Shown here in pieces: positions 1,441 to 4,170 of a DNA stretch of 4,170 bases. The stretch's first letter is position 1. Every line of letters starts with the position of its first letter. The notes under the pieces are model-generated. The model searched no databases. It was not told the origin of the DNA and saw only the letters and a list, made by a program, of their open reading frames with translations. This DNA comes from a virus (Duplodnaviria; Heunggongvirae; Uroviricota; Caudoviricetes). The position numbers and the translations under genes are program-made. The stretch is from the IMG/VR virus record IMGVR_UViG_2713896777_000015; one strand, given 5' to 3'.

Positions 1441-1942
1441 AATTCCATCCAGCTTTTTGTTGGTATTGCTGTCGATACGCAAGTTTGAAAGCAATTGCTT
1501 TTTCTATAAGTTCGTCAGTTTCACGATCCACTACGGCAGGATCAGCAAAAAGCAGTCCGGACTCCACCACATCGCCATATTCTTTGTTTAACCCGGCGAT
1601 CATGTACGTGATGCTTTTTCCGTCACTAATTTCACGATACAACCTGAAATCATTAATCCGAATAGCCTCCATAATTGCAGGCACTAGCGCCGTGAACTTT
1701 TCACGCTTATCCCTGGTGTCGATAGCCTTCCAGCGTTCGAATATCTTCACTCGATTAACGCCAAGTGCTCGCTGATCAACCGCGCCACCTTCATCTGTGA
1801 CACGCTGAACATCGATGTTCGGGCGCTCTTTCAAAGCCCAGAATGCTTCAGTGATTAATATCGTCGCCTGCTCCTGTGTCATTCCTGGTCGACATATCCA
1901 GGCATCCAGAGCCTCACGAGCCTGTTCAGGAGTGATTTTCAT
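1421..1942 (-). CDS. YdaT-like protein (173 aa) in the cII-equivalent position between the cro-like gene and the replication initiator
   Basis: Complete ORF with ATG at 1942, overlapping the stop of the upstream cro-like gene by 17 nt, which is consistent with translational coupling. It sits where Rac carries ydaT after ydaS. Motifs such as RVKIFERWKA and ALVPAIMEAI fit my recollection of the YdaT family, but this is not verified by a search. Confidence 0.7.
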   Translation of the reverse strand: MKITPEQAREALDAWICRPGMTQEQATILITEAFWALKERPNIDVQRVTDEGGAVDQRALGVNRVKIFERWKAIDTRDKREKFTALVPAIMEAIRINDFRLYREISDGKSITYMIAGLNKEYGDVVESGLLFADPAVVDRETDELIEKAIAFKLAYRQQYQQKAGWNYEPSFC

Positions 1943-2153
1943 TGTTCAACCGCCCCGCCCGCTTCGTCTTACGATATTCGTCATAAACCTTGGGATCATA
2001 CAGAAGCTCGCCGCCAGATGCCTCCTGTAGACGCATCGCGCGACCTTCAGGAACCAGCTCTTGCCATTGAGAAACAGCAGATGGGTCAACGCCAGCAGCT
2101 TTCGCTACTTTGGCTTTCGTACCGTAAAAATTAATTACGTCTGATTTAAACAT
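1926..2153 (-). CDS. dicC: Cro/DicC-like (YdaS-family) small transcriptional regulator, 75 aa
   Basis: Divergent from the repressor gene. The sequence ...LVPEGRAMRLQEASGGELLYDPKVYDEYRKTKRAGRLNNENHS matches my memory of the DicC/YdaS family. I prefer the ATG at 2153 (Met10 of the track ORF) because GGAGGT (revcomp of 2157-2162) lies 4 nt upstream. The track start at 2180 has no RBS and would sit inside the predicted promoter/operator. Confidence 0.8.
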   Translation of the reverse strand: MFKSDVINFYGTKAKVAKAAGVDPSAVSQWQELVPEGRAMRLQEASGGELLYDPKVYDEYRKTKRAGRLNNENHS

Positions 2154-2230: not shown

Positions 2231-2638
2231 ATGAACGAGAAAACTTTAGGTCAACGCATTAGAGAAAGACGTAAGCAGGTAGGCTTAAGTCAAAACGGTT
2301 TAAGCAAAGCTGCTGGCGTATCTGGCTCATCAATTTCATTATGGGAAAGTGACCATACAGCCCCGCGCGGGCAAAATTTGCATCGCCTCGCCGAGGTATT
2401 GCAATGTTCACCAACTTGGATACTGTTTGGCGACGAGGACAAAACACCAGCTCCCCCTGTTTCACTCGATAGTGCCTTAGACTTATCGGAAGATGAGTTA
2501 GAGATGCTGCGTTTGTATCGCGCACTTCCTAAATCAGAGCAACAAGCACAACTCAGCGAACTCCGCGCCCGCGTTGAGAATTTTAATCGCCTGTTCACCG
2601 AGCTATTAGAGGCTCGCAAACGCAACAAGCATCAATAA
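2231..2638 (+). CDS. dicA: XRE-family HTH repressor, DicA-like (CI-type prophage repressor), 135 aa
   Basis: N-terminal HTH (QRIRERRKQVGLSQNGLSKAAGVSGSSISLWESDHTAPRGQNLHRLAEVL) followed by LQCSPTWILFGDEDK, which I recall as essentially identical in E. coli DicA. The C-terminal region (...LSELRARVENFNRLFTELLEARKRNKHQ) is also DicA-like. Start placed at ATG 2231 (Met18 of the track ORF), matching the DicA N-terminus. The upstream extension to 2180 would overlap the operator and the cro-like start. Confidence 0.85.
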   Translation: MNEKTLGQRIRERRKQVGLSQNGLSKAAGVSGSSISLWESDHTAPRGQNLHRLAEVLQCSPTWILFGDEDKTPAPPVSLDSALDLSEDELEMLRLYRALPKSEQQAQLSELRARVENFNRLFTELLEARKRNKHQ

Positions 2639-2658
2639 TCATCCCTTCACAAAATTTT

Positions 2659-2693
2659 AAAGCCTTACATTTCAATGTATTGGCTTTATCTTG
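2659..2693 (+). terminator. Putative intrinsic terminator after the repressor gene
   Basis: Seen in sequence: AAAGCC (2659-2664) pairs with GGCTTT (2682-2687), with an internal palindrome ACATTTCAATGT, followed by the T-rich ATCTTG. Imperfect hairpin with a large loop, so the call is weak. By position it is analogous to lambda tImm. Confidence 0.3.
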
Positions 2694-2699
2694 CGCCAA

Positions 2700-2760
2700 C
2701 ACTTGAGTTTTCTCATCAAAAAACCTTGACGAAAAATAATGAGAAAACTAAATTACCTCC
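2700..2760 (+). promoter_or_regulatory. Second operator copy plus sigma70-like promoter for the repressor-distal operon (pL / PdicB analogue)
   Basis: Seen in sequence: TTGAGTTTTCTCA at 2703-2715 is an exact 13-bp copy of the operator core at 2167-2179. Immediately downstream are -35 TTGACG (2726-2731), a 17-bp spacer and -10 TAAATT (2749-2754). In Qin, DicA represses the dicB operon promoter located downstream of dicA (established knowledge); this arrangement is consistent with that. Confidence 0.5.
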
Positions 2761-2830
2761 ATCAAGACACCGCACGGTGTTCTCAGCAAACAGTTCCGCT
2801 ACCCCGGCGTTAAGGGGAAATGAGGTCAGC

Positions 2831-2983
2831 ATGGATACTATCGATCTTGGCAACAACGAATCTCTGGTATGTGGCGTGTTTCCCAATCAGGACGGCACGT
2901 TTACCGCGATGACGTATACCAGAAGCAAAACGTTTAAAACTGAAGCTGGCGCGCGTCGCTGGTTAGCCAGAAACACTGACTGA
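2831..2983 (+). CDS. ydfA: YdfA-like small protein (DUF1391 family), 50 aa
   Basis: MDTIDLGNNESLVCGVFPNQDGTFTAMTYTRSKTFKTEAGARRWLARNTD matches my recollection of Qin YdfA, the first gene after dicA. Start at ATG 2831 with GAGGT (2822-2826) 4 nt upstream. The track ORF's 5' extension to 2675 lacks an RBS and runs through the predicted terminator and promoter. Confidence 0.7.
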   Translation: MDTIDLGNNESLVCGVFPNQDGTFTAMTYTRSKTFKTEAGARRWLARNTD

Positions 2984-2994
2984 TGAGGTTGACG

Positions 2995-3633
2995 ATGGAA
3001 TTTAAAGATTTACCTCCTTCAATCCAGGAGATTGCAGCACACACACTTCGTCATCGTCTGAACGAACTTGAATTGGAATCGGTAACGAAAAAAGACACTG
3101 ATAATATGGCTCGTAATGTGCGCGATGCGTTTACCGGATTGTATTTCTGTGCGTCTATAAATAAACACGACTCAGAGAGTGTGGCAAATAAAATTGCAGA
3201 AACGACAGCGCAAAACATCAATACGAAACCAACGGAAGAAGAAATTGATCAGTTTGCTCATGATGCTGGTTTAAAAAACAAGAAAGAAAAATCGCCATAT
3301 GCGGGGAACATGTTTGTTTATGACAATCTCATCAGAATTCGTGGCGAAATTCCGGCGGAATACCTGGCAAGAGTCCATCAGGCATTGCTTAAAAATTTGG
3401 AAACAGAATTATTTGATGGCAACACTAACGGTTTCTTCATGGTATCAGGCCTTGAGAAAGACTGGGATGCAGAAAAACGCTGGAATGTTGCTACATGGTT
3501 ATTCAGTAACAGAGCCGCTGCACTGGAAGCTTCGGCATGTATTTGCGGCCTGTTCTTAACAGACCACAAATATAATCTGGATGTGTACAGTTATATTTAC
3601 GCTGAACACGGTCCACTCTGGATTGACTGGTAA
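2995..3633 (+). CDS. Hypothetical protein, 212 aa, no recognisable motif; AT-rich cargo gene in the repressor-distal early operon
   Basis: Long ORF (track 2983..3633). I prefer ATG 2995 because GAGG (2985-2988) lies 6 nt upstream; the alternative ATG at 2983 overlaps the ydfA-like stop (TGATG). GC content is visibly lower than the flanking backbone. I see no Walker A, HTH, HNH or other motif I can name. It sits where Qin carries ydfB-ydfC-dicF-dicB and where lambdoid phages carry accessory genes. Confidence 0.75.
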   Translation: MEFKDLPPSIQEIAAHTLRHRLNELELESVTKKDTDNMARNVRDAFTGLYFCASINKHDSESVANKIAETTAQNINTKPTEEEIDQFAHDAGLKNKKEKSPYAGNMFVYDNLIRIRGEIPAEYLARVHQALLKNLETELFDGNTNGFFMVSGLEKDWDAEKRWNVATWLFSNRAAALEASACICGLFLTDHKYNLDVYSYIYAEHGPLWIDW

Positions 3634-3843
3634 TTATAAGGAAACACCAGCAGGGCCGCGGCGACCAACAGAACGATTAAAATCAATAATGCCATTATAA
3701 AGGACATTATTTAATTTATCGTCGAATGCTGATTCTGTGAGCCTCAACTCTGAATGAGTTTTTAATAACCCTGATTGCCTGAGTTGATTTACCAGGCATT
3801 CAATCTGTTTTTCAATAAGCGGATTTCTTTTTTTGTTTGGCAT
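3634..3843 (-). CDS. Hypothetical small protein (69 aa), convergent with the 212-aa gene
   Basis: Preferred start ATG at 3843 (Met5 of the track ORF) with GGAGG (revcomp of 3849-3853) and a 5-nt spacer, a near-ideal RBS. The track start at 3855 has none. Its stop codon (revcomp of 3634-3636) directly abuts the + strand gene's TAA (3631-3633), giving TAATTA. Basic N-terminus (MPNKKRNPLIEKQ...). AT-rich. No clear promoter found in 3844-3900. Confidence 0.5.
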   Translation of the reverse strand: MPNKKRNPLIEKQIECLVNQLRQSGLLKTHSELRLTESAFDDKLNNVLYNGIIDFNRSVGRRGPAGVSL

Positions 3844-3903
3844 TTTATCCTCCATTGAGGTTCTGGGTTAAAAATGGAGACCAACACGCTGTCACGTGTG
3901 GTC

Positions 3904-4170
3904 GTGCGCCGGACACGGATAAGAATCCGGTACTGACAGTTTACTGAAAGGATATTTCCCTGAAAAGTCAGGGCATAACGCGAAAGCGTACGGCGAAGCT
4001 CTTTCCCTTAGAAGGCTTGTCGTTAGATTTCTTCGAACGTGCGCTTCCGGTTGTGGCACTCCGCGAAATGGCGCGGCGGTAAGTATGGCGGGGTTATTCC
4101 TTCCCCATTGAGGACACCGGGTTGTCAGGTTGACCATACGCTTAAGTGACAACCCCGCTGCAACGCCCTC
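3904..4170 (+). ncRNA. GC-rich highly structured segment, probably the 5' part of a structured RNA or RNA-based mobile element (truncated by the window edge)
   Basis: Seen in sequence, + strand: GTGCG at 3904-3908 (second copy 4039-4043); hairpins CGGAT-AAGA-ATCCG (3916-3929), CCCTGA-AAAG-TCAGGG (3958-3973), ACGC-GAAA-GCGT with a GNRA loop (3978-3989), CCGCG-AAATGG-CGCGG (4061-4076), GGGG-N9-CCCC (4090-4106) and a 9-bp stem GGGTTGTCA/TGACAACCC with a 19-nt loop (4119-4155). Loops are purine-rich on the + strand and pyrimidine-rich on the - strand, which favours a + strand RNA. All three + frames hit stops between 4109 and 4149 and the only - strand ORF uses a TTG start with no RBS, so the segment is non-coding. 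Identity unresolved. Confidence 0.35.

Follow-up and report, generated by a model that had tools for sequence, protein, structure and literature searches.

Why do two prophage genes run toward each other until their stop codons touch, with no terminator between them, and does the arrangement join two functions or merely two neighbors? The question is raised by a 4,170-nucleotide (nt) stretch of IMG/VR virus record IMGVR_UViG_2713896777_000015 (the whole stretch analyzed is called the window here), in which a plus-strand gene for a 212-amino-acid (aa) protein and a minus-strand gene for a 69-aa protein converge on the hexamer TAATTA. Comparative analyses showed the two to be one co-inherited unit and the space that they occupy, from ydfA to the precursor of the small RNA DicF, to be a site at which such pairs are exchanged. 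On balance, sequence comparisons make it probable that the pair is a conserved mobile two-gene cassette, an effector plus its partner, seated in an exchange slot of a repressor-controlled early-left operon (dicBF type) of enterobacterial prophages and expressed from opposing transcription.

Two genes inherited as one unit

The pair comprises the following parts.

2995-3633, plus strand: the 212-aa gene (“Ybl81,” phrog_2151), with ATG at 2995 and stop codon TAA at 3631-3633
2995-3150, plus strand: its N-terminal domain, codons 1 to ~52, delimited by PHROG matches and allele comparison
between the N-terminal and C-terminal domains, plus strand: a low-complexity linker
3280-3630, plus strand: its C-terminal domain, codons ~96-212 (dN/dS 0.12-0.18)
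3631-3636, both strands: the abutting stop codons TAATTA, by direct reading
3634-3843, minus strand: the 69-aa small gene (phrog_4274), with ATG at 3843-3841 and a stop codon that is the complement of 3634-3636

Direct reading agreed with a preliminary description of the window, in which the two genes were said to terminate at the adjacent bases 3633 and 3634. The larger gene would encode 216 aa from an alternative ATG at 2983 and the smaller 73 aa from an in-frame upstream ATG at 3855. The ATG at 3855 has no Shine-Dalgarno (SD) sequence, and the ATG at 3843 follows, after 5 nt, a GGAGG (3853-3849, minus strand) that the same description had rightly called a near-ideal ribosome-binding site; in Salmonella locus L097 the equivalent upstream ATG is not in frame, which leaves the SD-led ATG as the start valid across loci. 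The absence of an intervening terminator, also described previously, held up as well: a terminator scan predicted no terminator-like site on either strand from 2600 to 4170, and RNA folds over the 3633/3634 junction were not better than those of shuffled sequence (z of -0.8 and -1.0).

Substitution patterns showed both open reading frames (ORFs) to be real genes under purifying selection. Between diverged copies, the ratio of nonsynonymous to synonymous substitution rates (dN/dS) was 0.15-0.29 for the 69-aa ORF, with 13/10/32 variable sites at the three codon positions, and 0.12-0.18 for the last 115 codons of the 212-aa gene, with 21/14/48. A 69-aa ORF without protein-level conservation, which the preliminary description had named as grounds for giving up its proposal, was thus not what these ratios revealed. 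An 86-aa, TTG-initiated minus-strand ORF (3892-4152) was also considered as a co-directional upstream gene, since a similar ORF in locus L010 carries a recorded Pfam DUF1883 match. The window copy had no Pfam match, its homologues are broken by indels and stop codons, and the ORF is probably spurious.

For 77 IMG/VR copies of the C-terminal domain, the flanking DNA was long enough for comparison, and the junction TGGTAA/TTA (TGGTAATTA) was identical in 73 of them. The 69-aa gene was intact and abutted the 212-aa gene in 65 copies; the junction was rearranged in a single copy. Eight more had lost 1 nt from an A7 tract in the small gene and three had an internal deletion in it, with the 212-aa gene intact in all eleven. 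The A7 tract (window 3826-3832, T7 on the plus strand) spans codons 4-6 of the 69-aa gene, and its shortening to A6 leaves a 17-aa product, which could be due to phase variation, pseudogenization, or assembly error. One lineage (L291, L294, and L300 in IMG/VR; P0140 and P0145) had the small gene mostly deleted, with ~12 codons remaining, beside an intact large gene that ends in ...WIDWFKG.

The pairing was found well beyond these copies. Diverged E. coli alleles (L004, L005, L010, and L014), at ~84-86% nucleotide identity and with 75-90% aa identity in the large protein, had the 69-aa gene at the same TGGTAA/TTA junction, as did a Salmonella element whose backbone is quite different (integrase, HTH_Tnp_Mu_1, HTH_35, and Phage_ASH) and which has neither ydfA nor DicF. 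An exhaustive HMMER search of the C-terminal 153 residues against 1.84 billion representative proteins returned 9 hits, among which the only genuine distant relatives of the C-terminal domain were P0162 and P0163 from Salmonella, at 36-39% identity. These two proteins have a different N-terminal domain (MFNVKRNG...), in one case with an inserted HTH_3, and are encoded in loci ordered as integrase, C-like repressor, Cox, C-domain gene, and exonuclease genes. There, too, a convergent small gene overlaps the 3' end of the plus-strand gene, by 53 or 11 nt, and its product resembles the 69-aa protein (52% and 46% identity, with E values of 4e-24 and 2e-12), down to a common, conserved basic C-terminal tail, GRRGPAGVxL. 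The preliminary description had proposed examining whether the pair is conserved as a unit in other genomes; the 73 of 77 identical junctions, the E. coli alleles, and the Salmonella loci together bore this out. The co-occurrence in Salmonella, in another prophage type and with another N-terminal domain, is the strongest argument for a functional link over physical linkage.

The MFNVKRNG... proteins form a second Salmonella polymorphic family (L096-L098), with a conserved ~70-aa N terminus and variable remainders. Many members have HTH_3, the gene lies directly after Cox in a P2-like immunity region, and one version bears the C-terminal domain of the window's 212-aa protein.

The family as a whole is narrow, having been found solely in Escherichia and Salmonella accessory genomes. 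A one-genome-per-species collection contained no relatives of the 69-aa protein or of the C-terminal domain, and tblastn of the 69-aa protein against a phage collection gave no match. O157:H7 EDL933 and many other strains have the cassette region (2984-3900) at 100% identity, and, of 5,426 complete E. coli genomes, 597 contained at least 80% of it.

An exchange site for matched convergent genes

To what extent is the position of the pair itself conserved? IMG/VR was scanned for the conserved sequence upstream of the minus-strand gene, and 119 sites were analyzed. At least 10 unrelated small genes (59-101 aa) begin at the same ATGGAGGATAAAATG, with a common leader, SD sequence, and ATG, and each was matched one-to-one with its own plus-strand C terminus. 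The pairs included the following.

69-aa small gene with a 212-aa plus-strand partner: stop spacing of 0 nt (50 of 50 analyzable cases)
64-aa small gene with a 112-aa plus-strand partner: stop spacing of -12 nt
61-aa small gene with a 52-aa plus-strand partner: stop spacing of -29 nt
61-aa small gene (Zn-ribbon) with a 129-aa plus-strand partner: stop spacing of +186 nt
80-aa small gene (Zn-ribbon) with a 186-aa plus-strand partner: stop spacing of -44 nt
100-aa small gene with a 122-aa plus-strand partner: stop spacing of -77 nt
94-aa minus-strand gene with a 51-aa plus-strand gene (L111 and L120 in IMG/VR): convergent with a 4-nt overlap, between ydfA and the DicF leader

The plus-strand partners share a beginning. 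Their N-terminal domain (MEFKDLP...NVRDAFTGLY) was common to at least 7 C-terminal types, and genes at the same position in other prophages joined it to unrelated C termini (52-186 aa in total); conversely, at least three alleles of the domain (2995-3150; P0040, P0122, and P0128) were found on the same C-terminal domain. Among PHROGs, the full-length 212-aa protein matched phrog_2151, and the N-terminal 50-75 aa also matched four other families. By these comparisons, a mosaic joint lies within the 212-aa gene, near the motif NVRDAFTGLY. Because the N-terminal domain at one end and the leader, SD sequence, and ATG at the other are shared, the variable block extends from about codon 50 of the plus-strand gene to the start codon of the minus-strand gene; the left flank thus supplies an N-terminal coding segment and the right flank a translation-initiation region. 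In the Qin prophage of strain K-12, the co-directional genes ydfB and ydfC stand at the slot instead of a convergent pair. Taken together, the sites surveyed show, at the level of sequence, that the space from ydfA to the DicF precursor is an organized exchange site for matched convergent gene pairs.

Accessory and defense hotspots of P2 and P4 (PMC9122126) likewise hold many unrelated cargoes at a fixed position between conserved flanks. Unlike those hotspots, the slot described here always holds a convergent small-gene pair, its cargo shares an N-domain coding region and a translation-initiation region with the flanks, and its cargoes gave no PADLOC defense-model match beyond a weak one to PDC-M14A (E = 3.5e-4), the only PADLOC match among the alternative cassette proteins. 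The 94-aa alternative small protein scored 21.2 bits against Pfam GhoS (a type V antitoxin endoribonuclease), for which the cutoff is 21, a weak hint. The other alternative cassette proteins had no significant Pfam, NCBIfam, or PDB match.

Slot units also occur in tandem. In the Salmonella loci L012 and L013 (2501-4000), a 200-aa plus-strand gene with a 69-aa minus-strand gene is followed by a 119-aa plus-strand gene with a 64-aa minus-strand gene; each unit has its own copy of the conserved leader, and the loci have an integrase gene and Phage_ASH, with neither ydfA nor DicF.

In the literature searched (on antisense transcripts of the dicF region, DUF1391, ybl81, and early-left hotspots), the dicBF operon is described and non-conserved genes in O157 prophages are mentioned, with no description of the pair or the slot. 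Relative to that literature, the sharing of the N-terminal domain, the common antisense leader, and the slot are new.

The operon and the leader of the reverse gene

Why is there no terminator? The gene order is that of a Qin/dicB-type lambdoid prophage, a type common in Shiga toxin-producing E. coli, and the accessory-region setting given in the preliminary description was therefore correct. The window starts with minus-strand genes (DUF977, replication protein, YdaT-like, and Cro-like), after which the features that concern the operon are as follows.

1926-2153, minus strand: P22_Cro, a Cro-like gene (Pfam)
2168-2179: third copy of TGAGTTTTCTCA, beside the cro-like gene
2231-2638: DicA-like repressor gene with HTH_3 (Pfam)
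2704-2715 (plus) and 2740-2751 (minus): operator-like copies of TGAGTTTTCTCA, which flank or overlap the promoter at 2726-2754
2726-2754, plus strand: dicBp-like early-left promoter, TTGACG-17 nt-TAAATT, from a promoter scan and its match in position to K-12
2831-2983, plus strand: ydfA homologue (DUF1391, 50 aa), the first gene of the operon (PF07151, E = 1.4e-29; RefSeq, L001)
3880-4170, plus strand: conserved untranslated leader of the DicF precursor, part of ~330 nt of conserved noncoding DNA up to the window end

Rfam found nothing on the window itself at E values of up to 1, DicF falling just outside: it starts 12 nt past the window end (the equivalent of window 4182-4233) and was identified by Rfam at 8583-8634 of locus L001, with 75 bits. 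In L001, DicF is followed by dicB (8809-8997) on the same strand and then by a DUF1482/ydfD homologue, exonuclease, xis, and int. The sequence before DicF is widespread: 3903-4170 matched more than 4,300 of the 5,426 complete E. coli genomes at ~90% identity or more, often in several copies each.

The locus therefore has the defining parts of a dicBF-type operon, with a DicA-like repressor gene and a Cro/DicC-like gene flanking a divergent promoter region, ydfA first, and DicF and dicB downstream on the same strand. Its likeness to the K-12 Qin operon (dicA/dicC - dicBp - ydfA ydfB ydfC - dicF - dicB - ydfD) extends to the repressor/cro pair, the position of the promoter, a nearly identical 5' untranslated region downstream of it, the first gene, the long conserved untranslated leader, DicF, dicB, and the DUF1482/ydfD gene. 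It differs from K-12 in having the convergent pair in place of ydfB and ydfC and in its operator sequence, the latter implying a different immunity. The repeat TGAGTTTTCTCA had four matches, including one site with 2 mismatches, against 0.5 expected by chance; by analogy with DicA acting at dicBp (PMC10448788), its copies are probably operators of this prophage's DicA-like repressor. In four related loci (L004, L006, L010, and L014), a RelB/PaaA2 and RelE/ParE toxin-antitoxin pair separates the repressor gene from ydfA, and a ydfB homologue lies between the latter and the N-domain gene.

In K-12, DicF and dicB are expressed from a polycistronic transcript initiated upstream of ydfA, with no further promoter detected (PMC10448788, PMC5069750). 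The promoter scan likewise predicted no other plus-strand promoter here, and by homology a single plus-strand transcript would run from the dicBp-like promoter through to both. Because dicF and dicB would depend on that transcript, it would have to cross the entire 69-aa gene in antisense, and the predicted overlap would span the whole of that gene, beyond the 3' ends alone. Since the transcript must reach dicF and dicB, the missing terminator would be a requirement of the operon and not an oddity. Convergent antisense arrangements in temperate phages and type I toxin-antitoxin loci include the lambda OOP RNA against cII, the face-to-face promoters of 186 and P2, and prophage pairs of the txpA/RatA type that overlap at their 3' ends. 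The window is like these in having predicted opposing transcription across a gene, without a terminator between, in an operon under lysis-lysogeny control; it is unlike them in that the antisense unit codes for a selected protein that co-varies with the protein on the opposite strand.

The reverse gene has an elaborate upstream region of its own.

3844-3932, minus strand: structured leader of the 69-aa gene with three hairpins, from cross-cassette conservation and folding
~3930-3909, minus strand: hairpin H1 (RNA folding)
~3899-3884, minus strand: hairpin H2 (RNA folding)
3879-3874 paired with 3855-3850, minus strand: hairpin H3 (CUCCAU:AUGGAG), predicted to sequester the SD sequence at 3853-3849
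3938-3966, minus strand: candidate promoter TTTTCA-17-TAAACT, found by eye, with 8 of 12 consensus bases and below the scan threshold

The leader (~90 nt, 3932-3844) was common to at least 10 unrelated minus-strand genes and was recognizable in the Salmonella Cox-type loci. Its folds beat shuffled sequences in five contexts (z of -2.5 to -3.4), the H2 stem in L096 and L097 differed in sequence with its complementarity kept, and the extended first stem (H1) contained G.U pairs that are possible only in the minus-strand RNA. These features suggest that the leader is an element for translational control or RNA processing. Hexamers resembling a -10 element (TAAACT, TATAAC, or TATAGG) lay 6-8 nt upstream of H1 in four contexts. 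No operator-like repeat was found near the candidate promoter in the TGAGTTTTCTCA search, and, as the leader is shared across prophages with different repressors, control of the minus-strand gene by the prophage repressor is unlikely. Another promoter-like match for the 69-aa gene (3871-3842, minus strand) was rejected, as its -10 element overlaps the start codon.

Might the reverse unit, then, be primarily a cis-regulatory device, in which an antisense promoter and leader gate read-through from dicBp into the toxic genes dicF, dicB, and ydfD, by transcriptional interference or by antisense RNA with RNase III, the identity of the encoded protein being secondary? The leader, SD sequence, and ATG are constant across the unrelated small genes, folding of the leader is significantly stronger than that of shuffled sequence, and the DicF precursor always comes directly after the slot. 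In K-12, moreover, DicF and dicB are toxic, and their expression needs read-through together with processing by RNase III as well as RNase E (PMC10448788, PMC5069750). We nevertheless consider this unlikely as the primary role, since a pure transcription device would need neither the purifying selection on the small ORFs nor their one-to-one pairing with plus-strand C termini. In addition, K-12 Qin runs the operon without a reverse gene, and DicF is absent from the Salmonella Cox-type and L012 contexts, in which the pair does occur.

What the two proteins may do

If the pair is instead an effector-plus-partner cassette, the plus-strand gene would encode a modular early protein, with an exchangeable ~50-aa N-terminal domain from the left flank and a ~115-aa C-terminal domain from the cassette, and the minus-strand gene would encode the small cognate protein of that C-terminal domain, expressed via the structured leader in the right flank. 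A transcript of the operon, begun at the dicBp-like promoter, would cross the minus-strand gene on its way to dicF, dicB, and the later early genes, and because of that traverse the two genes would be expressed from opposing transcription. In a lysogen, where this promoter is repressed, only the small protein would be made, presumably from its own promoter; upon derepression or infection, the large protein would be made, and antisense transcription by dicBp read-through would silence the small gene. Most likely, the C-terminal domain has in the small protein a direct functional partner, which would neutralize or regulate it. We infer that the two proteins may interact physically and that the effector may be toxic.

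Neither protein is informative as to family. Neither they, their profiles, the N-terminal domain, nor the distant homologues had a significant match in Pfam, NCBIfam, PADLOC, or PDB, the pair had none in Pfam, NCBIfam, or PADLOC even at E values of up to 10, and cluster look-up by exact sequence returned only the names “hypothetical protein” and “Ybl81” for both. The AlphaFold2 (AF2) model of the hydrophilic 212-aa protein consists of a helical-hairpin N-terminal domain, a disordered linker, and an alpha/beta C-terminal domain, at low confidence (predicted local distance difference test [pLDDT] of 51), and that of the 69-aa protein has helices at 8-24 and 42-58 and a disordered basic tail, also at low confidence (pLDDT of 59). 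A Foldseek search against viral structures gave weak matches to Prp/YsxB-like cysteine proteases (TM score of up to 0.49), which were rejected in view of the poor model and the lack of any Cys or His conserved from the E. coli to the Salmonella C-terminal domains. Matches to ferredoxin-like and ACT-like folds were generic and not usable.

The closest architectural precedent for the cassette is the operon of pore-forming colicins, in which the colicin and lysis genes enclose an immunity gene on the other strand (PMC4436062), although the likeness is one of analogy and not of membership. Each has a promoter under stress or repressor control, a modular protein whose N-terminal part is exchangeable and whose C-terminal domain varies, a small cognate gene on the opposite strand directly downstream, and a requirement (predicted for the window) for read-through to reach the downstream lysis (colicin) or toxic (window) genes. 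The differences are also several: there is no sequence or fold relationship, the N-terminal domain of the window protein is ~50 aa without features for receptor binding or translocation, the small protein is predicted to be soluble and helical whereas a colicin immunity protein resides in the inner membrane, and the window locus is in a prophage whereas a colicin operon is on a plasmid.

Polymorphic toxin-immunity systems offer a second comparison. As in those systems, a conserved N terminus is joined to variable C-terminal domains (at least 7 types), and a co-varying cognate small gene lies directly downstream (at the 119 sites and in the Salmonella pairs). Where a secretion, translocation, or receptor module would be expected at the N terminus, the window protein has a ~50-aa predicted hairpin with no family match, and no secretion genes were found in the neighborhood of the pair in L001. 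Relative to CdiA-CT/CdiI and Rhs-CT/RhsI, the likeness includes an N terminus that ends in a motif (here, NVRDAFTGLY) after which the C termini diverge, a small partner gene for each family, and tandem cassettes (Salmonella L012/L013). In contrast to them, the window partner is convergent instead of co-directional, and the window has neither a secretion system nor a known toxin domain; the plus-strand proteins of the slot are small (52-212 aa), and a phage early operon encodes them.

Several observations weigh against an effector-plus-partner cassette. The N-terminal domain, a short predicted helical hairpin, bears no signal for secretion or delivery and the small protein lacks membrane segments, which makes the detailed mechanics of colicins and polymorphic toxins inapplicable. 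Both AF2 models are poor, and the promoter of the minus-strand gene is a weak candidate picked out by eye. In 11 of the 77 copies (~14%), the 212-aa gene is intact without a functional small gene, so that the small partner is dispensable for carrying the large gene. Finally, where evolutionary distances are short, physical linkage alone keeps neighbors together; the distant Salmonella pairs are the only ones to go beyond it, and they represent few independent events.

A narrower and more tentative proposal, which we hold to be possible but doubtful, is that the slot houses polymorphic effector/neutralizer pairs serving conflict between phages or between phage and host. The early effector, composed of the shared N-terminal adaptor and a variable C-terminal domain, would come from an incoming or induced phage, and the matching neutralizer from a resident prophage, by way of its repressor-independent, structured antisense leader. 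If so, a colicin-like immunity logic would operate inside a phage operon, with opposing transcription as the switch between states.

The effector-plus-partner cassette is of interest apart from this proposal. The dicBF locus is found in most E. coli genomes, and in several copies in enterohemorrhagic E. coli, and its promoter-proximal genes have hitherto been treated as filler. The slot yields ~10 new co-varying protein pairs in which effector and partner functions can be tested, it offers a natural system for opposing transcription within a toxic, repressor-controlled operon, and the reverse gene with its leader may influence the DicF and DicB output of a pathogenic strain.

Could the pair be a classical toxin-antitoxin (TA) module, or an abortive-infection (Abi) or exclusion system, in which a toxic 212-aa protein and a 69-aa antitoxin stabilize the prophage or kill infected cells? 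Such a role, the one put forward in the preliminary description, appears distinctly unlikely. It would account for why two genes, one of them a small and strictly co-varying partner, form a unit in a prophage accessory region, the 94-aa protein of another slot occupant does reach the GhoS threshold, and RelBE/ParE pairs lie nearby in related prophages. Against it, no toxin, antitoxin, or defense family matched in Pfam, NCBIfam, or PADLOC, nor did any defense-system model of PADLOC-DB v2 match the pair. The genes are convergent and not the co-transcribed, co-directional bicistron of type II systems, and the large gene lies behind a repressor-controlled promoter. The 11 copies that keep the large gene beside an inactivated or deleted small gene argue against a classical addiction-type antitoxin, with the caveat that the large gene is probably repressed in lysogens. 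A type I system would combine a small hydrophobic toxin with a noncoding antisense RNA; here the minus-strand unit codes for a conserved protein, and the plus-strand protein, of 212 aa, is hydrophilic.

That the two genes are functionally unrelated neighboring morons, hitchhiking together since recombination breakpoints sit in the conserved flanks, is in our view quite improbable. The recombination boundaries do lie to either side of the pair, near codon 50 in the plus-strand gene and at the ATG of the minus-strand gene, and linkage alone would for that reason preserve the pairing within E. coli. It would not be expected to hold at 36-39% identity in the C-terminal domain and 46-52% in the small protein, in prophages of another type and next to another N-terminal domain, nor to give every alternative cassette its own specific pair and to keep the tail-to-tail layout, with zero or negative spacing, in most cassette types.

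That the 69-aa ORF is not a gene at all and the conserved region is noncoding is barely credible: the ORF is short, lacks a known domain, and has a low-confidence model, but it combines low dN/dS and third-position bias with a canonical SD sequence, RefSeq and PHROG families, and homologues at 46-52% identity, whereas the neighboring 86-aa ORF fails the same kind of test.

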